From an uncultured Bacilli bacterium (GTDB lineage: Bacteria > Bacillota_I > Bacilli_A > RF39 > UBA660): 64,000 nucleotides of DNA. The notes beneath the pieces are model-generated. The model was not told where the DNA came from. It was given only the letters and a program-made list of their open reading frames with translations, and made no database searches. Position numbers and translations under genes: made by a program. Positions 7,637 through 55,019 of this stretch are shown piece after piece. How positions within the stretch are numbered: position 1 is the first letter of the stretch; every line of letters begins with the position of its first letter. The stretch lies in the NCBI GenBank assembly GCA_947626095.1, contig CANQQV010000003.1:64001-128000 (forward strand), given 5' to 3'.

Positions 7637-7861
7637 TCACAAGTTAACTAAAATTACATCTTCTCCTATTTTAGAAATATCATCAAAAGATACTTTAGTA
7701 TCTTCTGTTGATATCATAAATTTACGCCATGTTTTCTTTTCTTCAATAATTAAATATATTATTCTTCCCTGACTATTAATCTCTGCATCCACTATTTTAC
7801 CTATTCTACGTCCATCTTTAACACTTATAATATCTTTACTTTGTAAATCTGATAAAAACAT
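7637..7861 (-). CDS. ylmC: YlmC/YmxH PRC-barrel sporulation protein
   Basis: LSDLQSKDIISVKDGRRIG...ISKIGEDVILV; directly downstream of sigG. Confidence 0.9.
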   Translation of the reverse strand: MFLSDLQSKDIISVKDGRRIGKIVDAEINSQGRIIYLIIEEKKTWRKFMISTEDTKVSFDDISKIGEDVILVNL

Positions 7862-7891
7862 ATAACCACCTGCTTAATTATATGTTACTTT

Positions 7892-8665
7892 TTATTTCAC
7901 TAGTCTTTTAATATTATCTAAAGCTGTTTTTTCAATTCTTGATACTTGAGCTTGTGAAATATGTAATTCTTCACTTAATTCAGTTTGCGTCTTACCAATT
8001 ATATAACGACTATAAATTATCTTTCGTTCACGGTTCTTTAACTTACTTAAAGCTTTTCTAAGTAATAGTAAAGTTTCTCGATCATACTCTGGCCCTGGTG
8101 ATGCTATTTGATCTGATAAATATATCGTATCTCCACCATCATTATATATCGGTGTATTAATACTAATTGGTTCTTTTAAAGATGTTAAAGCATAAGAAAT
8201 AAGATATTCTTCAATTCCTAATTCTTTAGCAATCTCCTCATTACTAGGTTCATTACCATAAGTATTATAATATTTCTCTTTATAAGTTAATATCTTATAA
8301 GCTAAATCTTTAGTACTACGACTAACTCTAATTGGTGTCTCATCTCTAAAAGCCCTTAATATTTCTCCTTTAATTAAAAATACCGCATAAGTACTAAAAC
8401 AGACATTTAAATTTAAATCAAAATTATCAATGGCCTTTATTAAACCTATACAACCTATTTGAAACATATCATTAATATTATTAGCATTAGTTTTAAACCT
8501 TTTTAAAATACTTAAAACTAATTTTAAATTACCTTCTACTAACTTATCTTTAGCTTCTTTACTTCCTTTCTTCATCTCTTTAAATAACTCAATCATTTCT
8601 TCATTACTTAATGTTTTTAAAGTACTAGTATTTATTCCTGCTATTTCAACTTTACGATTATACAT
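7892..8665 (-). CDS. sigG: Forespore sigma factor SigG
   Basis: N-terminus RKVEIAGINTSTL typical of SigG, GNLKLVLS, DMFQIGCIGLIKAIDNFD, ISQAQVSRIEK; start moved to 8665 after AAGGAG. Confidence 0.9.
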   Translation of the reverse strand: MYNRKVEIAGINTSTLKTLSNEEMIELFKEMKKGSKEAKDKLVEGNLKLVLSILKRFKTNANNINDMFQIGCIGLIKAIDNFDLNLNVCFSTYAVFLIKGEILRAFRDETPIRVSRSTKDLAYKILTYKEKYYNTYGNEPSNEEIAKELGIEEYLISYALTSLKEPISINTPIYNDGGDTIYLSDQIASPGPEYDRETLLLLRKALSKLKNRERKIIYSRYIIGKTQTELSEELHISQAQVSRIEKTALDNIKRLVK

Positions 8666-8759
8666 AATTAAAACTCCTTTCAACCTTATATAGGTTAGAA
8701 ACAAGTTATTTTATGCAAATTGTTCTTACCATTAAAAAAATTAGAATATTTTCTAATTT

Positions 8760-9707
8760 TTATTCATAATTATTTTCATAAAATTCTTCAAAAATATCTA
8801 AAAGATATTCTCGACAAGCAATTGCTTTCTTCCATTCCTCAGGTATTAATTCATCACCATATATAATTCCTGATAAACCACCAGTTAAAGCGCCAATCGT
8901 ATCCGTATCATCACCTAGATTAACTGCGCCAATTATTGCTTCCTTAAAGTTCTCACTCTGTAAAGTAACCCATATCGCACTTTCCAAAGTATCAACAATA
9001 TAACCCGTTGATGCGATATCATTTATTGTCAATTTTGCAATATCATCTTTTAATAAACGATCATAAACTTTTCTCGTTTCTTCACTAAACATCGAATAAT
9101 CAATACTCTTAATCATACTATAAGCTGCAAATTTATCTTTTCCGTTAAGTAAAAACATTGCATATCTTACATATATATAGCAACCCATTATACTTATTTC
9201 ATGCGCATGAGTTAAAGAAGATACATCACGAACAACATCTAAGATTTCGTTATCTTTTAATCTTTTCTCTACGGCATAATAAGCAATTGGTAATATACGC
9301 ATTAATGAACCATTACCATTTGATTTAATATCACTTAAACCACAAGTATAAGGATCATGGCTCTCTTCATAATTACAGATTGATTGCAAACAAGTTCTAC
9401 CAATATCAAACACTTCACCTAAAGCTGTATAAGTCGCATGATTTTTCCATGCTACAAATTTAAGTGCAATATCATTTAAATCTATGGTTTGTTTCGAATT
9501 AATTGAATCAATCGTTGCAATCATCATTGAAGTATCATCTGACCATGTTCCCGCTGGTAGATTATAAGTCCCATTACCTGTCATTTTTGTAATAGGATTC
9601 TTTAGTAACTCATGACGTGAAACAAATTCAACTGGTACACCAAAAGCATCCCCAATAACAAAACCCATTAAACCACCAAGATATTTCGACTTCATAATCT
9701 CACCCAC
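8760..9707 (-). CDS. ADP-ribosylglycohydrolase (DraG/ARH family)
   Basis: GDAFG, WSDDT, GNGSLMR, TH, GDDTDT all intact. Confidence 0.93.
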   Translation of the reverse strand: MGEIMKSKYLGGLMGFVIGDAFGVPVEFVSRHELLKNPITKMTGNGTYNLPAGTWSDDTSMMIATIDSINSKQTIDLNDIALKFVAWKNHATYTALGEVFDIGRTCLQSICNYEESHDPYTCGLSDIKSNGNGSLMRILPIAYYAVEKRLKDNEILDVVRDVSSLTHAHEISIMGCYIYVRYAMFLLNGKDKFAAYSMIKSIDYSMFSEETRKVYDRLLKDDIAKLTINDIASTGYIVDTLESAIWVTLQSENFKEAIIGAVNLGDDTDTIGALTGGLSGIIYGDELIPEEWKKAIACREYLLDIFEEFYENNYE

Positions 9708-10877: not shown

Positions 10878-10959
10878 AAAAAGACGAGTAGCTCAACTGG
10901 ACTTACGCCTAAGCTACTCGTTGTATTAATATTATAACATTTTTTCTTTCTCTTAGTAA
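10878..10959 (-). promoter_or_regulatory. carD-like promoter followed by a leader hairpin with U tract (attenuator-like)
   Basis: TTACTA, 17 nt, TATAAT (extended TG), then ACGAGTAGCT/AGCTACTCGT stem plus CTTTTT just before the RBS. Confidence 0.55.
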
Positions 10960-10962
10960 GTT

Positions 10963-11697
10963 TTATTTAAACGGAATAAGAAGTTTTTCATCAAGTTTAG
11001 AAGCATCAAAACGATAATGCCCTGTTATCTTATAATTTGTAATAACATCTTCTTCTCTATTTAACTGACCACCATTATGAATAATATATGTATATCCTTT
11101 TTCATTACGACGATCAGATATCATTCCTACATGATTATTATTTAAAAAGACTATATCGCCCGCTTGCCATTCAGCTATCTTTTTATAATCATTAGTTAAA
11201 CTAATCGCATTTCTTTTAAAAAATACTCTTAAATTATTTACTCGACGAAAGTCAATATTCTTATCTCTATTTTCAATATCAGGATAATCACTAGGATGCA
11301 TCTTAATATCATTATCGACCATGTCTCTTAAACTATAACCTGCATTTTTAAAAGCACGCCATATCACATCCGTACAAACTCCTTCACTATCTGGTGGATA
11401 CGAATCAGCATAATACTTACTAATATAAGTCGGATGATTTTCAGCATCTTGACGAGCTCCTAATAAAAAGTCTGAGTAATCATCAATATCATCATTATCA
11501 AAATCAACACTACTATAAACAGTTTTTATATCAAAGTCTTTGCCCATATAATATTTCTTAGGAATTAAGTTACATTTATTCATCACAAAAATTACTACTA
11601 CAGTAAAAACTAAGATAATACAAATTATAAGGAAATTACGTAAAACATGTTTCTTTAAACCATCAGATAAATTTTGCAAGAAAATCACCCTTTTCAT
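10963..11697 (-). CDS. DUF1287/YijF-like NlpC/P60-superfamily protein with N-terminal TM
   Basis: GVCTDVIWRA, DKNIDFRRV, WQAGDIV, HVG, IIHNGG. Confidence 0.85.
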   Translation of the reverse strand: MKRVIFLQNLSDGLKKHVLRNFLIICIILVFTVVVIFVMNKCNLIPKKYYMGKDFDIKTVYSSVDFDNDDIDDYSDFLLGARQDAENHPTYISKYYADSYPPDSEGVCTDVIWRAFKNAGYSLRDMVDNDIKMHPSDYPDIENRDKNIDFRRVNNLRVFFKRNAISLTNDYKKIAEWQAGDIVFLNNNHVGMISDRRNEKGYTYIIHNGGQLNREEDVITNYKITGHYRFDASKLDEKLLIPFK

Positions 11698-11726
11698 ATT
11701 TTATTATACAAAATTAATATGGCCTT

Positions 11727-12545
11727 TTAAAGATTTTTCTCCCATTTCTTTTTAAGTAACGGTTTAATATCAATAACTACTGGTGATGGTAAAAGATCAC
11801 TAAGTTCACAAGCCATCTCTTGATAATTTACTTCACCAATTACTTTAGCTAAATACTCTAAAGCGCCAATAAAATCTTTTAAACTTATTCGTTTAGCTTT
11901 TCTTAATAAACAATAAGCAATTGTTAATCTTAAAGTCCTATTAATTTTATCATACAACTCATCTAATTGATTATCATCATTAATTTTTCTAGCAAACAAA
12001 GCATATATTTCTTCCCACTCTCTATCAGTTATCATAATTGGTGGTAAATTATAAACTCTATTTAATACATTATATTCAAAATTTATTCGTTTCTTGACAT
12101 CATCTATTGTTAAAAAGACAAATGGCTCTGGCCATAGTTCATCATCATTTCTTTTTTCCTTTGCCATATTCTTTATATCATCATTTAAAAAGTCATTACT
12201 ACTATAAAAAGAACAAGATATATTATAAGGATCATCATCATTTAATTTGATAATATTAGTATCATGACAATTTATTCTTTTACTTTCTTTTACTACATCC
12301 TTAACCATAACTGCTATAGCACAACCACTAACATACATTGTTCCAATAACTAATGGCGTTAAATCTTTAAGTAACAAACTTGCTAAAACTGCCATTGAAA
12401 AAGGCGCAAAAGCAATAAGTGCTTTCTTTTTATTCTCTTTATTTATCTTTTGCATATTAGCTTCCGTTTTACTAACTAAATCATCTAATTGCCAAAGATA
12501 AAGTTCTTCTGTTAATGTTCTAATCTCTCCATTATGTATTTTCAT
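11727..12545 (-). CDS. Hypothetical 2-TM protein
   Basis: 272-aa ORF with hydrophobic hairpin near the N-terminus. Confidence 0.7.
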   Translation of the reverse strand: MKIHNGEIRTLTEELYLWQLDDLVSKTEANMQKINKENKKKALIAFAPFSMAVLASLLLKDLTPLVIGTMYVSGCAIAVMVKDVVKESKRINCHDTNIIKLNDDDPYNISCSFYSSNDFLNDDIKNMAKEKRNDDELWPEPFVFLTIDDVKKRINFEYNVLNRVYNLPPIMITDREWEEIYALFARKINDDNQLDELYDKINRTLRLTIAYCLLRKAKRISLKDFIGALEYLAKVIGEVNYQEMACELSDLLPSPVVIDIKPLLKKKWEKNL

Positions 12546-12599: not shown

Positions 12600-13334
12600 T
12601 TAAAGAGCTAATTCTTGATTCCTTTTTTTAATAATAAAATAATATACTAAACCCGATATTACTAATCCTGTTACTTCTAAGGTTAACATTGGTGGAAAAT
12701 ACTTAAGCCATGGATATAATACCATTACATTATCAGGTATTTTCGTTGAAAATATATAATTAGTCTTAAAAGCCAAATTAAACGGATACATAATTAACAT
12801 TAAAAAATTAGTTAAGATAAAGGTTTGAATATAGTTTTTAAACTCAACATGATAATTTAGTGCATAATAAGAAAATAAACTAAGGGAAATAAAACAATGA
12901 TGCGATATAACATATTGCCAGAAATTAAAATTATCAATCGTTGAAACTAAATTCGGCCATAAAATAGCTGGTATTGGCCCTATAAATGATAAAAAGATAG
13001 TTATCTTTAAAATATTCTCTTTATTAAACAAAATACCAAACATAAATAAATAATTAGCAATAAAACATAAATGTAATGGTAAATGCTCTTTATAATCAAA
13101 ACTACCAAAATATAAATTACCAAAAGTAAAAATAAGCATATTAATAAATAATATAATCGCTCCTATTTTTAAAATTCTTTTACTGGTCTTTACTGGTATT
13201 TTAGCAATTTTATTTCTTTTTAAATAAATAATAATTAAAACTATTACTACTAACCCAATAAATATATTATGTATTAAACCAAATTGTTTAAACAAAAACT
13301 TAGGATGCTCATTAACAAAGAACTCTCTTAACAT
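12600..13334 (-). CDS. YwaF/TMEM164-family membrane protein
   Basis: QFGLIH, LPLHLC, YVISH, TNYIF. Confidence 0.82.
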   Translation of the reverse strand: MLREFFVNEHPKFLFKQFGLIHNIFIGLVVIVLIIIYLKRNKIAKIPVKTSKRILKIGAIILFINMLIFTFGNLYFGSFDYKEHLPLHLCFIANYLFMFGILFNKENILKITIFLSFIGPIPAILWPNLVSTIDNFNFWQYVISHHCFISLSLFSYYALNYHVEFKNYIQTFILTNFLMLIMYPFNLAFKTNYIFSTKIPDNVMVLYPWLKYFPPMLTLEVTGLVISGLVYYFIIKKRNQELAL

Positions 13335-35321: not shown

Positions 35322-36800
35322 TTATAACACTATAGCTATTAAGTTACTAGAACCTTTATTAACAATCTTCGTAATTGTCTGGGTTAATTTATATCTTGTA
35401 GTTTCAGGTACAACCGATAATTTAGCTTGAATTCCCTCCTTAACTATAACATCTAAACTACGACCAAATATCTCACTACGCCAAATATTTGTTGGATCTG
35501 TTTCATAGTCCTTCATCAAATAACTAATTAATTCCTTACTCTGTAATTCACTACCAATAATTGGTTCAAACAAACTTACAACATCAGCTTTAATAATATG
35601 ATACGAAGATGCCGTTGCTTTTAATTTAACTCCATACCTACTACCTTGTTTAACTATTTCTGGTGTATCAAGTTGCATATCCTTTAATGTTGGATAAACA
35701 ATTCCATATCCTGTTTGTTTGGCTGTTTTTATCGCTGCTTTTAAAATATCTGTTTCTTCTTTAGTCTCTTTATAAGAACTAAATATTTTAAGCATTCCTG
35801 CCTTGGTATTAACTGTATCTCCCATCATTTCATTTAATACTTCATTATACAAATCATCTTCACTATCTAAATTAATATTAACTATTCCTGTTGCTGTATC
35901 GACATTACTAATATAAGCTTTCGAAATATACTTACTTTCTTTAAAATAACTTAATATTTCATCAACATCTTTTAACTTAGTAACACTTAAAGTACTTGAT
36001 TTAATTTTTGTTAAATACTCTTCCTTTACTGGATGATTATTACTTAAAATATGCACCCATTCTGGTAATTTAATCTGAATATCTAAAACAGGGAATTCAT
36101 ATAATGCCGCTTTTAAAATATCATAAATTTCATATTCGGTCATTGATTCCACACTAATCGGTAAAACTGGAACATTATGCTCTTCTTTTAATTTACGTGC
36201 TAGTTCCTTAGTACCAATATCTTCAGGATGCGTTGTATTTAATATCACAATAAATGGCTTATTAATTTCTTTTAACTCATTAATAACCTTTTCTTCAGCT
36301 TCTACATAACTTTCTCTTTTAATCTCTCCAAAAGAACCATCACTAGTAACTACAATCCCTATTGTTGCATGATCTTTAATAACTTTTTCTGTTCCAATTT
36401 CTGCTGCTGTTTCAAAATTAACTGGTTCCTTAAACCATGGTGTTAAAACCATACGGGGATTACCATTTTCATCTTCATAACCATTAGAACCAGGAATAAT
36501 ATACCCAACACAATCAATTAACTTAACATTCGTTTCAAATTCTTCAACTTTTATTTTCGCCCCATTAGAAGGTACAAATTTAGGTTCTGTTGTCATAATC
36601 GTCTTCCCTTGAGCACTTTGGGGAATCTCATCTAAACAATGCTTCTTTTCGTATTCATCCGTAATATTAGGTACCACTAAGTTTTCAATAAATCTTTTAA
36701 TAAAAGTTGATTTTCCTGTTCGAACAGCACCTACAACCCCTAAATATATTTCACCATTACCCCTCTTAGAAATTGATTCTATTATTTTGTTATCTTTCAA
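35322..36800 (-). CDS. spoIVA: Stage IV sporulation protein A (coat ATPase)
   Basis: IYLGVVGAVRTGKSTFIKRF, MTTEPKFVP, IDCVGY, ALYEFPV, SEIFGRSL; probable TTG start 36800. Confidence 0.97.
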   Translation of the reverse strand: MKDNKIIESISKRGNGEIYLGVVGAVRTGKSTFIKRFIENLVVPNITDEYEKKHCLDEIPQSAQGKTIMTTEPKFVPSNGAKIKVEEFETNVKLIDCVGYIIPGSNGYEDENGNPRMVLTPWFKEPVNFETAAEIGTEKVIKDHATIGIVVTSDGSFGEIKRESYVEAEEKVINELKEINKPFIVILNTTHPEDIGTKELARKLKEEHNVPVLPISVESMTEYEIYDILKAALYEFPVLDIQIKLPEWVHILSNNHPVKEEYLTKIKSSTLSVTKLKDVDEILSYFKESKYISKAYISNVDTATGIVNINLDSEDDLYNEVLNEMMGDTVNTKAGMLKIFSSYKETKEETDILKAAIKTAKQTGYGIVYPTLKDMQLDTPEIVKQGSRYGVKLKATASSYHIIKADVVSLFEPIIGSELQSKELISYLMKDYETDPTNIWRSEIFGRSLDVIVKEGIQAKLSVVPETTRYKLTQTITKIVNKGSSNLIAIVL

Positions 36801-36828
36801 ATATAACACCCCTATCATTTTCTAATTA

Positions 36829-40856: not shown

Positions 40857-41099
40857 TTAAAACATTTTATCTACACTTTTAGGTACTTTTCCTTTTAAGA
40901 TTGTTTCAACAATCTTATCTTCTTTCTCTTTAGATACACTCTTCCCTGTTAAATTAGATAAAGTTGTAATAACTTCTCTTAAAGATTCCTCATCTTTTAA
41001 ATTACCATTTTGTAATTTTGTTGCTAAAGAAAGAATCGTTTCTTTATCAACTTTTGTCTTTTTTTCTACTTTAGCAAAAAATTTATCATCAAAATTCAT
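40857..41099 (-). CDS. spoVIF: Stage VI sporulation protein F
   Basis: FFAKVEKKTKV..I..LA..LQ..NLKDE..LR.VI..LS...GK.VSKEKEDKIV. Confidence 0.88.
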   Translation of the reverse strand: MNFDDKFFAKVEKKTKVDKETILSLATKLQNGNLKDEESLREVITTLSNLTGKSVSKEKEDKIVETILKGKVPKSVDKMF

Positions 41100-41393: not shown

Positions 41394-42782
41394 TTGAGTT
41401 ATATGGACTTATTAAAAGGATTAGTGAAAAAATATCAAAAATGGACAATTACTACAATTCTAATCTTATTACTTACTATAATCATTGGTATAATTATATT
41501 TCAATACAACAATAATCAAGAATTTAAATTAGAAATGGAAGTTATTAAAGAAACTAAAGACAATTATAATATTGAAATTAATTATCCTGTCCTCAATAAC
41601 AAAGGTTTCAACAAAAAAATAACTAACCTTATTACAACGGAAAAAAATAACTTTAAACAAAAAATAAAAGATATACCCAATACTAGCAATGAACTACGTA
41701 TCGATTACGACTATACTCTAAAAGATAATATATATTCTATTCATCTTTTAATATATTCCTATACTGGTCAAAATAATGAATATTATCATAATGATAAAAT
41801 ATTTTATATAAACAAAGCTACCAACCAAGAATTATCGCTTTCCGATTTAGTTAATAGTGATATTTATACAAATATTAAAGAGGATTGTAAAAACTACTTA
41901 ACTAATAAAAAAATCCCTTTATACGAAGATAACGTTATCGAACAAGCTTTAGACAATCTTGCAGATTTTGCTTTATTAGCCTTTAGCGAAGAAGAAATGT
42001 TTGTCATTATTCCCCCTTATAAAGTTAGTGACAACGAAATGGATATTAATATTAATATAAAATATAACAAAATCAAAGATGACTTAAATACCAAATATTT
42101 TACCTTTGCTAAAGATGAAGATTATCAAGTAAGTGGCCCAACTACTAATAACCAAGAGCGTAACTTAGATAACTTCAAAAATAAAAAGTTATTAGCTATA
42201 ACCTTTGATGATGGTCCAAATTATAAAGTAACTAAATATTTAATTGATGAATTGGAAAAAAGAAATGCTCGTGTTACCTTCTTTATGGTTGGTAATCGCA
42301 TAAATTCCCAAAAAGAATTAGTTAAAGAAATTTATGAAAAAGGTCATACAATTGGTTCTCATAGTTACGATCATAAATCATTAACTAAATTAAAAGAAAA
42401 TCAATTAAAACAAGAAATAGATACAACCAATGAAATAATTCAAAGTATTACAGGTGAAACAGTTAAATACTTAAGGCCACCGTATGGTAATTATAATAAA
42501 GACATACTAAACGAAATCGACATGACTTTTATTTTATGGAATGTCGATACTGAAGATTGGAAAAGTAAAGATAAAGATAAAGTATGTAATCACATCATTA
42601 CGCATGCTAATGATGGTAATATAATTTTACTCCATGATTTGTATCAAACTTCTGTCGATGGTGCCTTATGTGCAATCGACAAATTAAAAAATGAAGGTTA
42701 TGAATTCGTAACCATTGAAGAAATGGCTAAAATAAAAGGAATAGAACTTAAAAATCATACAGCCTATAGATATATAAAATAA
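41394..42782 (+). CDS. Peptidoglycan/polysaccharide deacetylase (PgdA/PdaC-like, CE4)
   Basis: TFDDGP, TFFM, HSYDH, RPPYG, DTEDW, ILLHD; N-terminal TM and DUF3298-like domain. Confidence 0.92.
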   Translation: MSYMDLLKGLVKKYQKWTITTILILLLTIIIGIIIFQYNNNQEFKLEMEVIKETKDNYNIEINYPVLNNKGFNKKITNLITTEKNNFKQKIKDIPNTSNELRIDYDYTLKDNIYSIHLLIYSYTGQNNEYYHNDKIFYINKATNQELSLSDLVNSDIYTNIKEDCKNYLTNKKIPLYEDNVIEQALDNLADFALLAFSEEEMFVIIPPYKVSDNEMDININIKYNKIKDDLNTKYFTFAKDEDYQVSGPTTNNQERNLDNFKNKKLLAITFDDGPNYKVTKYLIDELEKRNARVTFFMVGNRINSQKELVKEIYEKGHTIGSHSYDHKSLTKLKENQLKQEIDTTNEIIQSITGETVKYLRPPYGNYNKDILNEIDMTFILWNVDTEDWKSKDKDKVCNHIITHANDGNIILLHDLYQTSVDGALCAIDKLKNEGYEFVTIEEMAKIKGIELKNHTAYRYIK

Positions 42783-42804
42783 AAATCGCTTAAAGCGATT
42801 TTTT
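42781..42804. terminator. Bidirectional terminator
   Basis: AAAAATCGCT-TAA-AGCGATTTTT. Confidence 0.8.
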
Positions 42805-42809
42805 TATTA

Positions 42810-44021
42810 TTAACTTTTAATATATTGAATTCGATATCCAGAATAATCTTTCTTTCCACAATCTTTTCCAGAAGTCATAAAACGTGATGATGCTGTATCC
42901 ATTCTTTCAACCTTACCATCATAACTATCAATAATAAGTAAATCTTGTTCAGTTAAACTGGAAGCATTAGTCACGCTTGACTTAAAGCCAACAACTGTTA
43001 CAAAATGTCTTGAAGTACCCTGTTTATTACCATTAACTTGTAAAACAACAGGTCGGCCATTAGCAACTTCATTAAATACTTTTTCCAAAACATCTTCTTT
43101 ACTATCATTAACATACGTAGCAAAACTACAACCACCTGAATTATAGTTAGCTCCATCATCTGGAGAAGCTGCTGTGCTACCACGATACATCCCACAAGCA
43201 TGAACATAAGCAAAACCTAGACATTTATCACTATACTTCGTCTTATTACTAGCTTGAAAAACCCCTTTACTACCAATAGCATTTGCATAATCTAATACTC
43301 TAATTGGTGTATTAACAACAGTAAAATTTTCACCTAAAATATTAAGTTCTGTAGTTCCTCCACTATTTAATACAGGATCGTATGATGTATTTCCGGAACT
43401 TCCACTACCTCCATTACCATTCGGTCCATTAGCTGGACCAGTATCTCGTGGAAGCTCAATCGTCATACATATACCATTTTCATATCGTCCATTTTTTGCT
43501 TTACATTCAATAATTAAAGCATTTTCATTAGCTTTAATTGAAGAGTCTGAAATACGTTTAACAAAACTTATCATATCATCTTCACGAGCAATCCCCGCTA
43601 TTTTACTAACTGCATTCTCGGCTCTTTGAACTGTAGCAGTAGTTGGATTATTTTCCATATTTTCTAATGCTGTTATTGCTTCAGCTATTGAATCATAATA
43701 TTTAATATTGTTTTCCGTTGCATTTTCCATACATACCTTTAAATCTTCAAAAGATTCCCCAGTTAAAGAAAAAACATAACTGGCAATAGTTGGCATCAAA
43801 AAGATTACTAAACCAGCAATTAATTTTTTAACCGAAACTCCAAGTGCAGCCTTAAAATCTTCTTCTTTACCACTTATAACTATTTTTGCTAAATTAACAA
43901 TTACAGTAATTACAATAATAATTGGAACAACAATGAAAATTATTTTTAAAACATTACGAAAAAAATATAAAGCTCTTAAAAATGATCCCGACTGACACAA
44001 ATTACTTAGTTTCATTCCCAC
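42810..44021 (-). CDS. VirB2/TrbC-pilin-like N-terminus fused to a C39-like cysteine peptidase domain
   Basis: Cys-flanked 2-TM hairpin (IVVPII...KKLIAGLVIFLMP); KCLGFA, GRPVVL, RHFVTVVG, IIDS triad. Confidence 0.75.
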   Translation of the reverse strand: MGMKLSNLCQSGSFLRALYFFRNVLKIIFIVVPIIIVITVIVNLAKIVISGKEEDFKAALGVSVKKLIAGLVIFLMPTIASYVFSLTGESFEDLKVCMENATENNIKYYDSIAEAITALENMENNPTTATVQRAENAVSKIAGIAREDDMISFVKRISDSSIKANENALIIECKAKNGRYENGICMTIELPRDTGPANGPNGNGGSGSSGNTSYDPVLNSGGTTELNILGENFTVVNTPIRVLDYANAIGSKGVFQASNKTKYSDKCLGFAYVHACGMYRGSTAASPDDGANYNSGGCSFATYVNDSKEDVLEKVFNEVANGRPVVLQVNGNKQGTSRHFVTVVGFKSSVTNASSLTEQDLLIIDSYDGKVERMDTASSRFMTSGKDCGKKDYSGYRIQYIKS

Positions 44022-44030
44022 ACCTCTTTT

Positions 44031-46211
44031 TTATACCTGTAATGGATTATTATCAATTTCAATATTAACTTTCAAATTGCTTACATATATCCTATCTAAC
44101 TCTTTCAAAGTTTTAAATAAATTATCATCTTGTTTATATTTTATAATAATTTGAAAACGATATATATTATTAATTTTAAACACTGATGCCGTAGTAGGCC
44201 CCAATATTATACTAGTCTTATTTAATTTACTACTTAAATAATTTTTAATTTTATTTATCTCTTTTAAAGCTAATTCATAGTCTTTAGAGGAAGTCTTTAC
44301 ACTTGTTAAATAGTAATAAGGTGGATAATCAAGTTTATGACGATTTTCCATTTCATAATTATAAAATCTTTCATAATCATGACGTGCAACACACTTTAAA
44401 GTAAAATTATCTGGATTCATTGTTTGAATAATTACTTCTCCCGGTATATCACTTCGACCTGCTCTTCCTGCTACTTGTGATAACAAAGCATATGTTCTTT
44501 CTCCACTTCTAAAATCAGGAATATTTAATGTCGCATCAGCATTAACAATACCTACTAAAGTTACTAATGGAAAATTAAGTCCTTTTGAAATCATCTGTGT
44601 ACCAAGTAAGATATCATACTCATGATTTTTAAAACGATTAATTATATCTTCATGTGCTCCTTTATTTCTTGTGGTATCAGCATCCATTCTAATTGTTCTA
44701 GCACTAGGTATTAATCTATTTATCTCTTGTTCTAATTTCTCAGTTCCAACGCCATAATCCACTAAAGACTTATCATGACATTCTGGACATCTTTCTCCTT
44801 TAAAAATCGTATATCCACAATAATGACATCTTAAGTTATTGCTTGTCTTATGATAAGTTAAAGTAATATCACAATGTGGACATTTATAAGTATAACCACA
44901 AGTCTTACAAGTAATAACTGTTGAATACCCGCGACGATTAAGTAACAAAATTATTTGCTCTTTTTTTATTAATCGATCAACAATTTTATCTTTTAAAACT
45001 GAGGATAATATTACATTACGTTTCTTCATTTCCTCAATCATATTAACAATTAAGATTCTTGGTAATATTGCCTTACCAATTCTTTTTGGCATTGAAAGAT
45101 ACTTATATACTCCTTTTTTAGCCCTGGCCATTGATTCTAATGAAGGCGTTGCACTACCTAAAACTAATGGAATATGATGATAATGACTTCTAAATTTTGC
45201 CATATCTATTGCATGATAACGCGGACTAGTTTCTTGTTTATATGTCTCACTATGTTCTTCATCAATAATTATAATCCCAATATTTTTTAAAGGTGTAAAA
45301 ATTGCACTACGTGTTCCAATAACAATATGAACTTCACCTCTTAGTATTTTTAAATATTCATCATATTTTTCCCCATCAGATAAAGCACTATGAAATATCG
45401 CCACATCATTTCCAAAACGATTATAAAAATTATTAATGATTTGCGTCGTTAAAGATATTTCAGGTACTAACATAATCGCTGTCTGTCCACTTTTTACAAC
45501 CTTCTCAATTAGCTGCATATAAACTTCTGTCTTTCCACTACCTGTAACTCCATGCAAAAGATAAGTATCTTCCTTATTAAGGACAACACTTTCCAAAGCC
45601 TTCTGTTGATCCAAAGACAATTCTTTTTTTTCTTCAACTACTTTTTTATTATTTAAACGATATATTTGTTCTTTCGTTTCTTTAACTAATTTTTCTTCCT
45701 TTAAAGCCTTTACAATATTAGATGAAAAAGTATTCTTTAATATTCTTTTTTCTTTTAATAGTAATTCCAAAGCTTCATTTTGTTTTTTACGACTAGGATG
45801 ACTCACAATATATTCGTTAATTTCTAACTCATTTTTACTTAGTTCTAAATAAACTAAATATTTCGAATAATTATTTTTTTGTTTTTTGACCTTTAAAGAA
45901 CTAGGCAACATTGTTTGATAAGCCATAATTTTAGTACATAAAGTTTCTTCTTGTAAATAAGTCCCCAGTTTTAATAATTCATCATTTAAAACTAAATACT
46001 TATCTACTACATCCTTAATTTCTTTTAATTCATAATCTTCTTGATATTCATCTTTGATATTAGTTACAAAACCATTAATTATTTTATTCCCAAAAGGAAC
46101 TAATACTTTCATTCCTATTTGTAAATCGTCTTTTAAAGATTCAGGGATTAAATATGTAAATGTTTTATCAATTGACTTAGCACTATACTCAATTAAAACT
46201 TCAGCGTACAT
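44031..46211 (-). CDS. priA: Primosomal protein N'
   Basis: GVTGSGKTEVY, VPEISLT, DEEH, SATPSLES, four CxxC pairs, QVAGRAGR. Confidence 0.97.
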   Translation of the reverse strand: MYAEVLIEYSAKSIDKTFTYLIPESLKDDLQIGMKVLVPFGNKIINGFVTNIKDEYQEDYELKEIKDVVDKYLVLNDELLKLGTYLQEETLCTKIMAYQTMLPSSLKVKKQKNNYSKYLVYLELSKNELEINEYIVSHPSRKKQNEALELLLKEKRILKNTFSSNIVKALKEEKLVKETKEQIYRLNNKKVVEEKKELSLDQQKALESVVLNKEDTYLLHGVTGSGKTEVYMQLIEKVVKSGQTAIMLVPEISLTTQIINNFYNRFGNDVAIFHSALSDGEKYDEYLKILRGEVHIVIGTRSAIFTPLKNIGIIIIDEEHSETYKQETSPRYHAIDMAKFRSHYHHIPLVLGSATPSLESMARAKKGVYKYLSMPKRIGKAILPRILIVNMIEEMKKRNVILSSVLKDKIVDRLIKKEQIILLLNRRGYSTVITCKTCGYTYKCPHCDITLTYHKTSNNLRCHYCGYTIFKGERCPECHDKSLVDYGVGTEKLEQEINRLIPSARTIRMDADTTRNKGAHEDIINRFKNHEYDILLGTQMISKGLNFPLVTLVGIVNADATLNIPDFRSGERTYALLSQVAGRAGRSDIPGEVIIQTMNPDNFTLKCVARHDYERFYNYEMENRHKLDYPPYYYLTSVKTSSKDYELALKEINKIKNYLSSKLNKTSIILGPTTASVFKINNIYRFQIIIKYKQDDNLFKTLKELDRIYVSNLKVNIEIDNNPLQV

Positions 46212-46250
46212 TTAATCACCTTCATATAACGATTATACCATATATCCAAG

Positions 46251-46381
46251 AAAAAAAAGAGTTAAAACTCTTTTCTTCTTAAAGTGTGGCACTCAAACTG
46301 GTGCAGTATCACTTTCCCTTTTTCTTCTTTTTATTAGATATTAATCATCTAACCTTAGAGATAGCATACCTATTCTCTAAG
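46251..46381 (-). ncRNA. Candidate structured small RNA (three hairpins plus terminator)
   Basis: Stems 46354-46381, 46334-46352, 46281-46315; terminator 46251-46274 with U8; TATAAT upstream; no credible ORF. Confidence 0.5.
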
Positions 46382-46422
46382 ATTATTATAATACTTTACA
46401 TTATATTTTTGTAAATAAAAAA

Positions 46423-46454
46423 TAAACATTTACATACATATATGTAAATGTTTA
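46423..46454 (-). terminator. Terminator of the 46457-47347 gene
   Basis: TAAACATTTACATA/TATGTAAATGTTTA perfect 14-bp stem followed by U-rich sequence. Confidence 0.75.
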
Positions 46455-46456
46455 CA

Positions 46457-47347
46457 TTAAGAAATCCTTATTATTTTACCTGGACGATCATCCTTCATAA
46501 ACCATGTCATATTCTGCGGTCCACCTTTAGAATTACGCCATAAAGATTCATCACCACAATCATAAGAATAAACATTACCATCTTTAACTGCTGCCACAAT
46601 TGAAACATGACCATAACCTACTTTGCCATTTTTAGCGACATTAGTTCTCACAACAATATCCCCAGGTTTTACTTTGTTGGTAACATCTTCTCCAGCTGCT
46701 ACCGATATTTCAGTCCAACCATATTTTTTATGCCAATCAGTTTTCATAAAATCTCTTGTTCGATGCTGTCCTCCAGCAAAATCTTTATATCCCATTTCAT
46801 ACAAAACCCAACTAACATATGAACTACAATCTATTAAATTCCCTTTAATCGGAATTTGTTCAGTATTTTCTGCATTATAATGAAAGTCTCCATTAACTAC
46901 TTGATGCCATATTTTTTCAGCAACTGGTAAAACCTTAGTATTAGCCGAAGTATTATCATTATCTAAAACAGTATAATCTAATTCTGGAACTTTATATGTA
47001 ATACGATTTAAATCATTATTAGATTCATATAATAAATTTACTTCAGTATCACTTTCATCCCAACAAGCACTTAAATAGTATTCATCTGGTTTTAAGGCTG
47101 TAAATAAATAATTAAGAGCTACTGGCAGTAAAAAAACAACTAAAAGCCCAATTAAACTATTACGAAAGCGATATAACAACTTTTTTCTCGTTTCGTCATT
47201 AGGATTAATAATATATTTATATAAAGCCAAAGATAAAATAATAACAACTAATATTGGAATAATAATATGACATAATTGCATAAATATTTTAAATAATTTC
47301 ATTGTTATTAAAACTATTTTACTCGTACACACATTATCTTTAAACAT
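46457..47347 (-). CDS. VirB2/TrbC-pilin-like N-terminus fused to an NlpC/P60-type peptidoglycan amidase/peptidase
   Basis: Cys-flanked 2-TM hairpin (IIIPIL...NSLIGLLVVFLLP); IDCSSYVSWVL, KPGDIVV, GHVSIV, YDCG. Confidence 0.8.
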   Translation of the reverse strand: MFKDNVCTSKIVLITMKLFKIFMQLCHIIIPILVVIILSLALYKYIINPNDETRKKLLYRFRNSLIGLLVVFLLPVALNYLFTALKPDEYYLSACWDESDTEVNLLYESNNDLNRITYKVPELDYTVLDNDNTSANTKVLPVAEKIWHQVVNGDFHYNAENTEQIPIKGNLIDCSSYVSWVLYEMGYKDFAGGQHRTRDFMKTDWHKKYGWTEISVAAGEDVTNKVKPGDIVVRTNVAKNGKVGYGHVSIVAAVKDGNVYSYDCGDESLWRNSKGGPQNMTWFMKDDRPGKIIRIS

Positions 47348-51407: not shown

Positions 51408-54400
51408 TTATAATTTAAGTCCTTGACTAGGCTCTTCCATTCCAAAGTCATATTCTTCAACTAAATCAGTACGATTAGAATCAAGACTCTTTGATGCACG
51501 AATTTGTAGTTTATAATCTCTTAAATCAAAATTCTCTTTAGGCGTTTTAAATGCTAAATCAATAGTATCATTATCTACAATAACTGTTTTACGACTACGA
51601 TAATTATCTTTAGCTACTAACGCCAAACGACCATTTATCTTTCTAATTCTTTCATACAAATCTCTTCTAAGTCTAATATTAACACCGTTCTTAATTGCTG
51701 TAATAGTCATCGAATCAACATCTTTAACAATTGCTTCATCTTTACTAACTTTAACTACTTTACTATTAGGATTTAAGAAAATATGTGGTAACTTAACTTT
51801 TGCATTGTTATATTTCTTTTTATTAGAAACTGGCTCTGTTCCTATTATCGAAATAAATTCAAAATCACTATTACTATCTAATGATGGAATAAATGGTGCT
51901 TTTACTCTACTAAATAAACCACTCAACAATTCATCATTCTGTTTAACTAAATCATCAATACTATTTAAATCTAAATTATTAGTACTCATTTCATTAGACA
52001 ATCTGTGAGAAATTGCTCTTCTAATAACCAAGATAAATCTAACTAATTCATTAATTCTTTTATTTAAAGAAGAATCATTTCTATCTAACAACTCTAAAAC
52101 TTCATTCGCCGAAACACTAATCAATTGATTACTAAAGACTAAGTATTGATCAATTCTTGAATAATATTCGACATTGAGTAATTCTGAAGCCGAAGATACA
52201 TCGCCTGCTAAGGAACGATTAAATTTCTTAACATAAGCTAAACGAAGATTTAGCAAATCATTCTTATATCTTACAATATCATTTAAATTAGAATCAGCTT
52301 TTAGTTCACTATTTATAATATTATTAATAAACTTACTATCAGAAATTGATACCATACCTGTTGATTCATAAAAACTATTAACAGCATTAACTTCTTTAAC
52401 TTTAGTATTAACCTCATTAATTATTGCTAAATATAAACTATGATACTCTTCTACAGTTTCAGGAATAACTAAAGGTCTATAAGCAACAGATGTAAATACT
52501 GGCAATCTATCATTTTCTTCATTACCTGATCCACTAGGTAAATGTTCAGATCTTATAGATTTAGTCAAGTTCTTAGCAGCAATTAATTCATCACTAAGCA
52601 TTTGACGTTTATAAGTCTTCATTCTTTCATTTGCAAATGTTATCGTTAAAACGTCATCTTCAAAACTCATTTTAACCCCATTCTGCATATTTAACGGATT
52701 ATTAATTAAAGTATTTAAATATTCACATAATACTCGATAATCATGCTGATAATCTTCAGTATTTAAATATTCTGCCGAAGCATTTCTTAAATTATTACAT
52801 TCAGGCATGACATTCAATCTGGCTATATTAATAGCCAAATAGTTCATAATATAATCGCATAAATCTCGACCTAAAATATTATAAATCTCATTTTCAAATT
52901 GATTTTCATACCTTTGAATAATACTTTCTTTTTCAATTGTACTAAGCTCAGAATAAGCTGAATCAGTTAATAGCTTTGTAATATTAGCATCAGCTACATC
53001 CATACTTTCATGATCAAAAGTAAAATTAGTTAAATAATTTAATACTTCATCATAATATATTTTAACAATTCTCTTCGCTTCAGCTTCAAATCTTTCCAAC
53101 TGTTCATTTTTTACAGCAACAGTTAAGGCATCAAGATTACTTGAAGGTTCATCTAACTTCTTTGGCTCTGCTAAATGTACACTAACTAAGTTTCTTTTAT
53201 TAGGATCATCATCATCTAAACTATAAGGATAATTTGTCCAAATACGATAATCCCCTTCTGGGTTTAATACATTTTCTCTTAATTCATAAGAAAAACGTGC
53301 ATCACTAATATTTCTTTCCACTTCTTCCAAACTATATTCTGGATGTTCCTTAGTCATAACAGTTCTTAAAGCATCACAAATAGTTGCAATAGGAATATCA
53401 CGTGTTGTTGCACCACGATACATTAAATCCTGTAATCTATCAAATAATCTATCAAATGAAAAAACACGTTCTTCGACATTATAATCAGCATTATATCCCA
53501 TTAATTCCAACATTCTTGGTATGTAAAATAATGGTGAATAATCAAAGCCATAAAATCTATTATAAGGACTAGCAGAATTAATAGCTAAACGTTGATAATC
53601 ATCCCTAGAAATTACTAAACACTTAGGAATAGTTAAATATTCCACTGTATTTGAATTATCAATATCCGTTTTACATCTCATTTTATTAAGTGGTGACATC
53701 CCAAAGAAATAAAATCTATATAAAGGATCATTTGTTGGATCAAAAGTACATAATTGATCTAAATGATATTTATCATCTTTTAAACGAGCTATATTTTCTA
53801 CGTGATTAACAGTACTATATCTAAAGCACTTAATATCACATCTTCTAAGCATTGCTGAAAATAAAGTAGCATAACCAACACAAACTATCGTACTCTTATC
53901 TAAAATTACACGATCTAAATCACGAGCATTTCGTGGTCGATTTTCATCTTCAGTATAAATATAATTTTCTCTTAAATAACATTGAGCAGAAAGCATAGCT
54001 TCTAATGGTGAATAATTGTTATCTTTTACTTTCTTTTCAAAAGTTTCAAGACTTTTTAAAACTTGAACATATCCTTTAGCACCAACAGTACCACTTCCTT
54101 CTAATTCAGAGCGATAACAAACATTACGACTATATGGTTCATGACAAGAATCATTAATCAAATCTTGACATGTATGATAAATAACCATTATCTCATTTGG
54201 CATGCTTTCTAATTTAGCATAATCTTCACTATTATCATGTAAAGGATTACTTAAAACACTTATTTTTACTTTAGGATCAAGTCCTGCTTTAACAAACTTA
54301 GATAAAATATCACTATAGCCACTTTGATTATAAAACCTAATATTCAAACTAGCACTATAATAAGGACTAATTTTCAAAACATCGTCTAAATGATTTTCCG

Positions 54401-55019
54401 TAACAATTTTTTTAACTTCTTCATCACTTAAATCTCTAGTTATAAAAAAATCACAAGTAGGACTATGATGAGTTTTTACATCTTTACTATCATTTCTCAC
54501 AAAAAGATTATTTTCTTCATCAATCGGCATCTGCTCTACTCTAGCAACCGACTTGTTAGCGGCAATTTCTAGAAAATTTCCCCTCTTTAATTTATCATAT
54601 GTTTCTTGATCAAGAACATAATCATCGCCCACTATTCTTAATGCAAAAGCATTAGCTTGGCTCTTCTTTATAAGTGCTTCAATAACTGCATCATTTTTTA
54701 AAAAACGATAATCAATTGCAAAAGTCGGACCAAATTGTGCTTCGTTAATAATATCAATTAAATATTGTAAGACATATTGGTTTCTTTCAGATAATGAATC
54801 AAGTTCACCATAAAAACCACTACTATATCTAAAAGAAATAACTTGTCTACCTAAATCATCATCTTCACTATTAATATAATTTCCAACAACTTGTACAGGA
54901 TTATCTAAACTTTCTTCCGTAAATAAACATGAATCTAAAAAAGCTCTATCCATAGAAAAGCCATTAAATCCCCATAATGCACGATATGTTTGATCCAATG
55001 CTTCATAATCATAATCCAT
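51408..55019 (-). CDS. Giant (1203 aa) protein with a central transglutaminase-like Cys-His-Asp domain
   Basis: YSPLE, IVCVGYATLF..L, HVENI, FDPT. Confidence 0.8.
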   Translation of the reverse strand: MDYDYEALDQTYRALWGFNGFSMDRAFLDSCLFTEESLDNPVQVVGNYINSEDDDLGRQVISFRYSSGFYGELDSLSERNQYVLQYLIDIINEAQFGPTFAIDYRFLKNDAVIEALIKKSQANAFALRIVGDDYVLDQETYDKLKRGNFLEIAANKSVARVEQMPIDEENNLFVRNDSKDVKTHHSPTCDFFITRDLSDEEVKKIVTENHLDDVLKISPYYSASLNIRFYNQSGYSDILSKFVKAGLDPKVKISVLSNPLHDNSEDYAKLESMPNEIMVIYHTCQDLINDSCHEPYSRNVCYRSELEGSGTVGAKGYVQVLKSLETFEKKVKDNNYSPLEAMLSAQCYLRENYIYTEDENRPRNARDLDRVILDKSTIVCVGYATLFSAMLRRCDIKCFRYSTVNHVENIARLKDDKYHLDQLCTFDPTNDPLYRFYFFGMSPLNKMRCKTDIDNSNTVEYLTIPKCLVISRDDYQRLAINSASPYNRFYGFDYSPLFYIPRMLELMGYNADYNVEERVFSFDRLFDRLQDLMYRGATTRDIPIATICDALRTVMTKEHPEYSLEEVERNISDARFSYELRENVLNPEGDYRIWTNYPYSLDDDDPNKRNLVSVHLAEPKKLDEPSSNLDALTVAVKNEQLERFEAEAKRIVKIYYDEVLNYLTNFTFDHESMDVADANITKLLTDSAYSELSTIEKESIIQRYENQFENEIYNILGRDLCDYIMNYLAINIARLNVMPECNNLRNASAEYLNTEDYQHDYRVLCEYLNTLINNPLNMQNGVKMSFEDDVLTITFANERMKTYKRQMLSDELIAAKNLTKSIRSEHLPSGSGNEENDRLPVFTSVAYRPLVIPETVEEYHSLYLAIINEVNTKVKEVNAVNSFYESTGMVSISDSKFINNIINSELKADSNLNDIVRYKNDLLNLRLAYVKKFNRSLAGDVSSASELLNVEYYSRIDQYLVFSNQLISVSANEVLELLDRNDSSLNKRINELVRFILVIRRAISHRLSNEMSTNNLDLNSIDDLVKQNDELLSGLFSRVKAPFIPSLDSNSDFEFISIIGTEPVSNKKKYNNAKVKLPHIFLNPNSKVVKVSKDEAIVKDVDSMTITAIKNGVNIRLRRDLYERIRKINGRLALVAKDNYRSRKTVIVDNDTIDLAFKTPKENFDLRDYKLQIRASKSLDSNRTDLVEEYDFGMEEPSQGLKL

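Follow-up and report, generated by a model that had tools for sequence, protein, structure and literature searches.

Gene organization of the locus

The DNA analysed here, a 64,000-nucleotide stretch of contig CANQQV010000003.1 from an uncultured Bacilli bacterium (assembly GCA_947626095.1, contig positions 64,001 to 128,000; the whole stretch is called the window below), carries three minus-strand genes that fill positions 42810-47347. These are priA, for the primosomal helicase, and on either side of it two hydrolase genes that we name ORF A and ORF B (ORF, open reading frame; A and B also denote the products). Both proteins begin with a shared hairpin module that resembles a pilin family of type IV secretion systems (T4SSs) and end in different predicted hydrolase domains. 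Judged by their sequences, they are paralogs within a very large Bacillota family of envelope hydrolases, and the reading that we favour, with moderate confidence, is that they are membrane-tethered autolysins built on an exapted pilin-like hairpin. The features of the locus are as follows.

42813..44015, minus strand: ORF A, stop codon 42810-42812; 401 aa with a predicted pilin-like hairpin, helical stalk, Gly/Ser linker and papain-like C39_2 domain (ORF, Pfam, structure model with a mean predicted local distance difference test score, pLDDT, of 84.9)
43692..44015, minus strand: module of A, residues 1-108; C7, helix 10-48 with P31, basic loop, helix 51-84 with P75, C95 and the motif 'NAT.E.IKYY' (alignments, model helices)
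43455..43691, minus strand: stalk of A, residues about 109-187; helical domain and small beta hairpin, with C171 and C183 nearly invariant (model secondary structure, homolog columns)
43365..43454, minus strand: linker of A, residues 188-217; rich in Gly, Ser and Asn, predicted to be disordered (pLDDT below 50)
42813..43364, minus strand: catalytic domain of A, residues 218-401; predicted papain-like C39_2-type cysteine peptidase with C265, H337, D358 and D363 (PF13529, invariant columns)
42781..42803, unstranded: bidirectional terminator-like hairpin that closes A and the convergent deacetylase gene
44031..46211, minus strand: priA, primosomal helicase, between B and A (Pfam PriA domains)
46212..46456, minus strand: structured B-priA spacer of 245 nt; 15-bp hairpin with U-run immediately behind B, additional hairpins, promoter-like TATAAT ahead of priA
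46460..47347, minus strand: ORF B, stop codon 46457-46459; 296 aa with a predicted pilin-like hairpin, short linker and CHAP domain (ORF, Pfam, homologs)
47024..47347, minus strand: module of B, residues 1-108; C7, P31, P75 and C95, helices 8-47 and 51-85 (PF18895 at residues 9-81, alignment, model)
46565..46831, minus strand: predicted CHAP domain of B, residues 173-261; C174 and H247 inside, D263 just beyond (PF05257, invariant columns)

The original ORF list gave A as 42810-44021 (403 aa, from a GTG at 44021). The start was moved to the ATG at 44015, giving 401 aa, because a GAGG ribosome-binding site precedes this codon and the homologs begin at the same methionine ('MKLSN...'). The start codon of A lies 15 nt past the priA stop codon, A has its own ribosome-binding site and a terminator stands behind it; A is probably co-transcribed with priA. 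ORF B starts 17 nt past the end of a PHP-domain gene, so that the neighbours of the two genes are priA, a PHP phosphoesterase and a polysaccharide deacetylase. The last, of the PdaC type (41394-42782), converges on A. The spacer between B and priA folds with a minimum free energy of -63.4 kcal/mol (z -5.99); the hairpin after B is a perfect 15 bp, and a second terminator-like hairpin lies ahead of the priA TATAAT. An Rfam scan gave no family match anywhere in the window, this spacer included. The spacer may be a leader, an attenuator or a small RNA.

A conserved two-helix module shared by A and B

The N-termini of A and B are 31% identical (32 of 103 residues; BLASTP, E 1e-6), and BLASTP found no significant similarity between the two proteins beyond these N-terminal ~103 residues. 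An earlier note, written from the DNA letters and their translations, had proposed that the two genes flanking priA share an N-terminal architecture of ~90 aa. The sharing is borne out, whereas the length is not: the module extends over about 105 residues and consists of a cysteine, an amphipathic/transmembrane (TM) helix with a proline, a basic loop, a TM helix with a proline and a second cysteine. All of the features that the note had picked out are present, namely C7 in both proteins, IVVP/IIIP, the charged loop, LIAGLVIFLMP/LIGLLVVFLLP and the closing KVC/SAC. The two cysteines, one leucine and the two prolines are invariant in 79 aligned homologous N-termini, and the identical five positions are invariant in a diverse 20-sequence alignment as well. 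A local hidden Markov model (HMM) of the module recovers A at 1.3e-40 and B at 3.2e-31. By these sequence measures, the likeness between the two modules is far beyond chance. A motif, C..NAT.E.I.YY, is conserved after helix 2. The Asn-Ala-Thr/Ser triplet that lies three residues past the closing cysteine (A residues 98-100) occurs family-wide and has the form of a glycosylation sequon.

Relatives were collected in several ways. The homolog search with A found 256 proteins, of which the best 120 were listed, ~70 of the listed being full-length with the shared N-terminus; the search with B found 10 relatives, and a word-index search for short forms gave 11 matches, none of them named. One scan of species-representative genomes, biased to relatives of A, provided 13 loci (L001-L013). 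A module profile of 17 rows (A4), made from window and locus sequences only, was then run against 1.84 billion cluster representatives and matched 8,737 of them at E<=1e-3, 2,628 at E<=1e-10 and 2 at E<=1e-30. The domain, layout, charge and cysteine counts given below for 146 representatives refer to the best 146 new matches of these 8,737.

P31 is present in all 146 representatives and P75 in 141. The two cysteine columns are both filled in 141 representatives, the 5 others being truncated and left outside this count; 131 have both cysteines, 6 have neither, 4 have the first only and none has the second only. In the 17-row A4 alignment, 12 sequences have both and 5 have neither, those five resembling one clade. 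This coupled presence and loss points to a disulfide that would join two extracytoplasmic ends, and a bond between the C7-type and C95-type cysteines is probable from the sequences. We also considered the closing cysteine as a lipoprotein acylation site, 'LSAC' of B having a lipobox-like look. This candidate was rejected, since the cysteine stands ~10 mostly charged residues past the second TM helix and A has 'LKVC'; in addition, the closing cysteine is lost only together with the N-terminal one (as in the 17-row alignment).

An alignment-based model of A (mean pLDDT 84.9, predicted template-modelling score 0.76) contains, in order, helices 10-48 and 51-84, a helical domain to ~173, a small beta hairpin, the linker 188-217 and an alpha/beta domain at 221-399. 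B, modelled from its single sequence, gave a poor result (mean pLDDT 49.8), of which only the hairpin helices 8-47 and 51-85 were used. Across the 146 representatives, the loop between the helices is basic (mean K+R 5.4 vs D+E 2.5) and the stretch after helix 2 is acidic (K+R 1.55 vs D+E 3.28). The L005 protein starts with a signal peptide and a Cys-rich exodomain and has its module at the C-terminus; 3 of the 146 representatives share this layout of a signal peptide and an exodomain ahead of the module, and in P0146, P0222 and P0240 a signal peptide immediately precedes the first cysteine. The loop charge, the L005-type layouts and these signal peptides argue together for a topology with the N-terminus outside, the loop inside and the C-terminus outside, which would be the layout of VirB2 as given in the accessible part of a December 2025 preprint (10.64898/2025.12.18.695078).

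Catalytic domains of A and B

The C-terminal domain of A matches Peptidase_C39_2 (PF13529) marginally, with 25.5 bits vs a cut-off of 24, and its residues C265, H337, D358 and D363 are invariant in 58 homologs. That of B matches CHAP (PF05257) with 36.6 bits vs a cut-off of 26; C174, H247 and D263 are invariant in 8 homologs, and the domain also gives a PHROG tail-lysin match (4e-7). The two C-termini had been described in the earlier note as unrelated, C39-like in A and NlpC/P60-type in B. Both assignments hold, the former with the marginal PF13529 score and the invariant Cys/His/Asp residues, the latter as CHAP with invariant C174 and H247, a domain that we take to belong to the same peptidase clan as NlpC/P60.

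Sequence searches of the PDB with the A family and with B returned nothing beyond TM noise. Fold matches of the catalytic domain of A in the PDB comprised staphopain, C39 domains and papain-like toxins of contact-dependent inhibition and type VI secretion systems; all were weak, the best at E 1e-2 and none at <=1e-3. In a viral library, the best matches were phage 'lysozyme' (7e-4) and endolysin proteins. The nearest named atlas clusters of the domain are all of the C39_2/C39/C70 type (C39_2 scores 0.93-0.94), several of them phage-borne. The same C39-like domain recurs, at 50-58% identity, behind a signal peptide and SH3b domains and also behind signal-less helical N-domains of ~100-250 aa (proteins P0085-P0130). 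An LXG or WXG100 identity of the signal-less helical carriers was suspected from their sequences, and the 12 such carriers among the 20 proteins scanned had no Pfam match to it. This distribution suggests that the domain of A is a shuffled wall-peptidase cassette with several export routes, and its predicted activity is that of a peptidoglycan peptidase.

Family size and diversity of the fused domains

Among the 146 best representatives, 111 have an N-terminal module followed by more than 60 further residues, 32 are short, several of these being evident fragments, and 3 have a C-terminal module. Pfam domains found in this set were C39_2 (11), CHAP (10), M23 (8), NlpC/P60 (6), ELLD (4), glucosaminidase (4), VanY (3), GDSL lipase/esterase (8 and 7, by two models), metallo-beta-lactamase (3) and Big_2 (2), with NAGPA, Peptidase_C39, M15_4, a phage receptor-binding propeller and DUF2272 once each. 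By these assignments, almost all of the fusion partners are envelope hydrolases. Among the fetched loci, M23 (L007), VanY (L009, L010, L011, L012) and GDPD (L006) follow the module, and further C39-like fusions in L004, L008, L013 and L011 (the second fusion there, L011b) had been overlooked by Pfam.

The regions behind the module were clustered by single-linkage BLAST, keeping 130 of 175 sequences in which the module started at or before residue 45, the matched module stretch was at least 86 residues and at least 120 residues followed the module. The 130 fusions fall into 41 classes. On a module-only tree (106 columns, poorly resolved), onto which the 14 classes with at least 3 members were mapped, 39 class changes were counted, where the minimum possible is 13 and shuffled labels average 69.6; 7 of the 14 classes must have arisen at least twice even when only the well-supported branches are counted. 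The intermediate number of changes and the forced origins indicate that the module and the enzyme are mostly co-inherited and that the enzyme has been replaced repeatedly. A polymorphic family with interchangeable C-termini, as predicted in the earlier note, was recovered. The module HMM and paralog count that the note had proposed gave 19 module ORFs in the window and loci, and the listing of C-terminal domains gave varied wall hydrolases (C39_2, CHAP, M23, GDSL, NlpC/P60 and others).

The head and stalk of two fusions of L008 (L008:10007-10948 and 10957-11949) give weak matches to the function-unassigned phage families phrog_3793 (E 6e-7) and phrog_11491 and to TIGR04402, 'mobilome CxxCx(11)CxxC protein' (E 1.5e-5). 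From these matches, phages or other mobile elements may be additional carriers of the module. Searches by tblastn with the L005 protein and P0146 against 72,556 plasmid records, and with the module of B against phages, gave no match.

Relation of the module to T4SS pilins

PF18895 (T4SS_pilin) matches B with 28.1 bits, above the curated cut-off of 26.6, and A with 19.1 bits, below it. The same family matches 29 of the 146 best representatives at E<=1e-3 (best 6.9e-10), and the atlas neighbour cluster of the module of B is named T4SS pilin (score 0.91, with PF18895 on 14% of its members). On sequence, there is good support for placing B, and the family taken together, in PF18895, in line with the proposal that the hairpin is pilin-like and not a generic anchor. 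In the accessible part of a study of Patescibacteria (PMC12102498), PF18895 is among the profiles used to find VirB2-like pilins near virB4.

In NCBIfam, the module gives sub-threshold matches (E 2e-3 to 6e-3) to families NF045849, NF045889 and NF045848 of Mycoplasma integrative and conjugative elements (ICEs). Locus L005, a 3.1-kb contig, has a module-bearing ORF directly ahead of a TrbL_4 (VirB6-like) ORF. This VirB6-like ORF corresponds to positions 144-305 of NF045889 (E 3e-8) and the window module to positions 60-118 (E 3e-3); the L005 module alone reaches only 13.7 bits on PF18895.

A comparison of the module profile with all PDB sequences retrieved no solved pilin and only noise from G-protein-coupled receptors (GPCRs) and other TM segments (E 0.38-5). 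PrgF of the Enterococcus faecalis plasmid pCF10 is described in the accessible part of the preprint as a VirB2-like protein of 75 aa, encoded two genes from virB6 (prgH) and essential for conjugation, which alone models poorly without the VirB6 pentamer (10.64898/2025.12.18.695078). It showed no relation to the module (hhalign probability 1.7%) and no match to PF18895 at E<=1. The VirB2-type likeness put forward in the earlier note stands for the two-helix, basic-loop, ends-outside layout but not for a sequence relation to solved pilins or PrgF. Nor do A and B have the form of a propilin, the small precursor with a cleaved signal peptide from which VirB2-type pilins arise, some of them cyclised: the module is at the very start, there is no signal peptide and 190-300 extra residues follow, although propilin-like forms occur elsewhere in the family (P0146, P0222, P0240). 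Descent of the module from a conjugation pilin is plausible from contextual evidence that is thin.

The pCF10 prgF gene itself (L014:19545-19772) has its best Pfam match to Maff2 (E 0.004, below cut-off), presumably a family from Firmicute conjugative transposons. This match is a possible lead for classifying Gram-positive VirB2-like pilins.

Tandem copies and a downstream lipoprotein gene

In 7 loci the fusion is immediately followed, on its downstream side, by one of a set of homologous ORFs of 200-240 aa, L011 having two copies. The encoded protein combines a lipoprotein signal with an exodomain and a TM segment at the C-terminus. Pfam, NCBIfam, PHROG and PADLOC gave this family no confident match, and no homolog of it occurs in the window, even at E<=10. 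The partner ORFs are listed by locus.

L004:10636-10866: lipoprotein partner ORF
L008:11959-12564: lipoprotein partner ORF
L009:10985-11638: lipoprotein partner ORF
L010:10003-10662: lipoprotein partner ORF
L011:1218-1877 and 2871-3536: lipoprotein partner ORFs
L012:6580-7296: lipoprotein partner ORF
L013:10961-11566: lipoprotein partner ORF

The partners of the VanY fusion and the C39-like fusion in L011 are 41-46% identical despite the different catalytic folds, a similarity more in keeping with a protein that partners the constant head than with a dedicated immunity protein. Between tandem paralogs, identity is 83-100% over the head and stalk and 30-70% over the catalytic half, and orthologous catalytic halves are 73-100% identical per 30-column block between species (L008 vs L013). 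The near-identical tandem heads, together with the conserved orthologous enzymes, point to concerted evolution of the head over stable, specialised enzymes.

A thioredoxin gene lies ~38 nt upstream of tandem, Cys-pair-bearing module genes in L004 (8337-8645) and L008 (9661-9969). In L013, a WXG100-family gene (12924-13316) stands ~2 kb downstream of the paired module and lipoprotein genes, and in L012 a 332-aa ORF with a WxG-like 'SSWEGNAA' motif (7794-8792) follows the VanY-fusion cluster. No core gene of a type VII secretion system (T7SS) was seen in the flanks of these two ORFs.

Genomic context

The window is core chromosome of low GC content (about 27%) from a spore-former, with genes for transketolase, LexA, a sigma factor, Fmt, DnaB/DnaI-like proteins, SpoIVA and Fhs. 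An 80-aa ORF by fhs (40857-41099) is the ortholog, at 88-93% identity, of SpoVIF-family genes in L001-L003; this gene and SpoIVA (35322-36818), 4 kb away, mark the organism as a spore-former. A Pfam scan of the 51 window ORFs found no T4SS family (VirB4, VirD4 or VirB6), as the earlier note had stated; the sole T4SS-related match in the window was that of PriA to TrwB_AAD_bind (E 0.01), a chance P-loop match. PADLOC gave no matches.

The hosts of the 13 loci are mostly uncultured Bacilli, with Candidatus Coprovivens, Eubacteriales- or Clostridiales-labelled metagenome-assembled genomes and two Muribaculaceae-labelled contigs. The latter (L005 and L007; Muribaculaceae belong to Bacteroidota) have 32% and 28.5% GC and Bacillota-type genes, and on these grounds they are probably mis-binned or mobile DNA. 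Tandem pairs of the module occur in L004, L008 and L011, and second loci in two genomes. The locus Pfam scan covered 208 ORFs over all 13 loci (141 at E<=1e-4 and 67 at E<=1e-6); 12 of the 13 loci had no T4SS family, TrbL_4 in L005 being the only one among the 208 ORFs. The surroundings of the loci are otherwise of the housekeeping type. The genes of L004, L008 and L013 are flanked by ponA-recU-gpsB-rodZ-pgsA-recA on one side and secE-nusG-rplKAJL on the other, and a SleB-like 'Hydrolase_2' gene lies near the fusions in L009, L010 and L012.

Three loci (L001, L002 and L003) are collinear with the window. Their A orthologs are 72%, 77% and 56% identical to A, priA is 85%, 83% and 79% identical, and fhs, compared in L001 and L002 only, about 93%. 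For a 1,203-aa ORF of the window (51408-55019), Pfam recognises a transglutaminase core and nothing else. The corresponding ORFs of L001 and L002 have 231-240 aa and are 46-48% identical over about 200-228 residues, the window copy being greatly extended.

Discussion

The ordinary chromosomal setting of A and B, the operon-like and syntenic position of A with priA and the lack of conjugation genes nearby lead us to favour membrane-tethered autolysins on an exapted pilin-like hairpin, a reading that we hold with moderate confidence. The hairpin of ~105 residues, of the PF18895 type, would serve as an anchor and perhaps in clustering, oligomerisation or gating of the enzyme. Its basic loop would face the cytoplasm, with both ends outside and stapled by the disulfide of the cysteine pair, and a spacer (stalk and flexible linker in A, short linker in B) would set the reach of the enzyme into the wall. 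The extracellular catalytic domain, varying by member and predicted to be a C39_2 peptidase in A and a CHAP amidase/endopeptidase in B, would then, at a set distance from the membrane, cut peptidoglycan of the cell's own wall as the cell grows, separates, sporulates or germinates. Both peptidoglycan as the substrate and action on the wall of the producer are inferred.

Several observations weigh against this reading. A diverges faster (56-77% identity) than priA (79-85%) or fhs (about 93%). B has an ortholog in L001 (71%) and is absent at the same site of L002, between the end of the PHP gene at 7551 and the start of priA at 7806, and such patchy presence would be more typical of accessory or conflict genes. 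The recurrence of the C39-like domain of A behind signal-less helical and SH3b carriers resembles that of a shuffled effector cassette, some family loci have WXG100-type genes in their vicinity, and the fold matches of the domain, all weak, include papain-like contact-dependent and type VI toxins. Finally, the link from PF18895 to true pilins consists of the name given by Pfam, the one VirB6-adjacent contig L005 and the sub-threshold NCBIfam matches.

Some of these observations would also be expected if A and B were effectors of the polymorphic-toxin type, in which the hairpin serves trafficking or presentation, the variable hydrolase hits the wall of neighbours on contact and the membrane lipoprotein, where present, protects. 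We consider this unlikely, though worth some weight. A constant N-terminus with 41 C-terminal classes in 130 fusions and repeated class changes on the module tree, tandem paralogs with near-identical N-termini and diverged C-termini, the lipoprotein gene directly downstream in L004, L008, L009, L010, L011 (twice), L012 and L013, the signal-less helical carriers of the catalytic domain of A, the WXG100 and WxG-like ORFs of L013 and L012, the variable presence of B and the weak toxin fold matches are all consistent with it. However, A and B lack a downstream partner, A being followed by a terminator and a convergent gene and B by a terminator-like hairpin and priA; the lipoproteins of VanY and C39-like fusions are alike enough (41-46%) to suggest that they partner the constant module; the catalytic domains of orthologs are well maintained from species to species; A is syntenic in relatives and forms an operon-like unit with priA; and the Pfam scan of 20 proteins revealed neither LXG nor any other domain for toxin trafficking. 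The attack on other cells proposed in the earlier note finds no echo in these genes, neither of which has an immunity-like gene downstream and the first of which is syntenic in three relatives.

Quite improbable is a coupling to pili or a T4SS, in which the hairpins would co-polymerise on a VirB6-like platform encoded elsewhere in the genome, and a VirB2-like fibre or short stalk would carry the hydrolases through the thick wall and open that of the producer or of a partner cell for DNA or protein transfer or epibiosis. The PF18895 match, the L005 module ORF directly ahead of a TrbL_4/VirB6-like ORF, the correspondence of that ORF and the window module to adjacent parts of NF045889 and the propilin-like short forms would suit such a fibre, as would two external termini, which in the geometry of the accessible part of the preprint (10.64898/2025.12.18.695078) would put C-terminal cargo on the outer face, and the need of Gram-positive T4SSs for a wall hydrolase noted in the accessible part of a December 2025 review (PMC12857230). 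Against it stand the lack of any VirB4, VirD4 or VirB6 family in the window or in 12 of the 13 loci, the several paralogs per genome at different housekeeping sites, the operonic position of A with priA, the missing sequence relation to PrgF (1.7%) or solved pilins and the lack of matches in the 72,556 plasmid records; moreover, a cargo of 200-300 aa per subunit would be sterically hard to pack in a fibre. The pilus or T4SS incorporation envisaged in the earlier note is accordingly not borne out, with no T4SS gene in the 51 window ORFs or in 12 of the 13 loci and with A operon-like with priA; pilus display and attack on other cells are both possible but unsupported. More speculative still is an enzymatic pilus of monoderms, for which we see little probability: hydrolase-bearing VirB2-like hairpins, alone or with short propilin-like members, would form a short fibre on a VirB6-like platform and drill the wall of the producer or of a neighbour. 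Least probable of all is a generic two-TM anchor, with a compositional likeness to pilins and with A and B as unrelated autolysins that happen to have a hydrophobic N-terminus. The modest PF18895 scores (28.1 and 19.1 bits), the GPCR TM segments that the module profile also picks up in the PDB and the 13.7 bits of the L005 module are what such an anchor would give, but the five invariant positions (Cys, Leu, Pro, Pro, Cys) across 79 sequences, the coupled cysteine loss, the 2,628 representatives at E<=1e-10 among 1.84 billion proteins, the conserved C..NAT.E.I.YY motif and the 29 of 146 members that reach PF18895 speak against it, and its claim that A and B are unrelated is already contradicted.

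A and B share some features with several known systems and differ from each of them in others. Like the PF18895 pilins of Patescibacteria, as described in the accessible part of PMC12102498, they have a two-helix hairpin with a short charged loop and belong to divergent paralogs within a genome, often in tandem. Whereas those pilins are small and standalone, many of them beside virB4, A and B lack a signal peptide, carry 190-300 additional residues with an enzyme and are encoded among housekeeping genes of spore-forming Bacillota, where no T4SS gene is close by. Like PrgF, they come from a monoderm host and are predicted to have two TM helices, with the charged loop in the cytoplasm and the two ends outside; unlike them, PrgF, in the accessible part of its description, has no fused enzyme, and it has no detectable sequence similarity to the module or PF18895.

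A further comparison is with the VirB1-like wall hydrolases of Gram-positive T4SSs. These are anchored by a single TM segment or a lipid, not by a pilin-like hairpin, and we take CwlT of ICEBs1 to be a further T4SS wall hydrolase of this kind. PrgK, TraG (pIP501) and Orf14 (Tn916) are likewise membrane-anchored and open the wall with CHAP, LytM/M23, muramidase or SLT domains (accessible part of PMC12857230); VirB1-like hydrolases are encoded inside T4SS operons, however, whereas A and B lie outside any T4SS locus. With the Mycoplasma ICE families NF045849 (pilin-like, Mbov_0395), NF045889 (the TM protein Mbov_0396) and NF045848, the family shares the order of a pilin-like stretch (positions 60-118 of NF045889) and a VirB6-like one (positions 144-305), but the scores of 16-33 bits against NCBI cut-offs of 40-90 mean remote similarity and not membership, and the names of these families include no hydrolase domain. 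With Firmicute polymorphic toxins of the LXG/T7SS type, the family shares a constant N-domain, a swappable C-terminal enzyme, conserved tandem heads and, in many loci, a small downstream gene. It differs from them in that the head is an integral membrane hairpin and not a soluble secretion domain, A and B have no small downstream gene, a single lipoprotein family occurs whatever the catalytic fold and orthologous catalytic domains are conserved.

According to the accessible part of the December 2025 review, VirB2 and VirB5 are not found in Gram-positive T4SSs, Patescibacteria excepted (PMC12857230), and that of the December 2025 preprint describes PrgF-type pilins on Gram-positive plasmids (10.64898/2025.12.18.695078). 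No publication on the fusion of PF18895-type hairpins with wall hydrolases came up in our literature search. Here a pilin-like hairpin is encoded on the chromosome and joined to an enzyme, which sets the family apart from the PrgF-type plasmid pilins. The family adds a third, unexpected setting for such hairpins, as the constant head of modular wall hydrolases in thousands of Bacillota proteins, on the core chromosome and not on mobile elements. If the head is only an anchor, it would represent a new and very common means by which gut anaerobes of low GC content anchor their autolysins and vary them, and would supply one annotation rule for many 'hypothetical' proteins. If the head still assembles in a pilin-like manner, it would make a new kind of surface organelle; an enzymatic pilus, if real, would mean that a conjugation pilin had been turned into a chromosomal housekeeping or predatory wall-breaching organelle of uncultured gut Bacillota. 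With its cysteine pair, two prolines and swappable enzyme, the family offers a compact, testable system for the exaptation of a pilin module.

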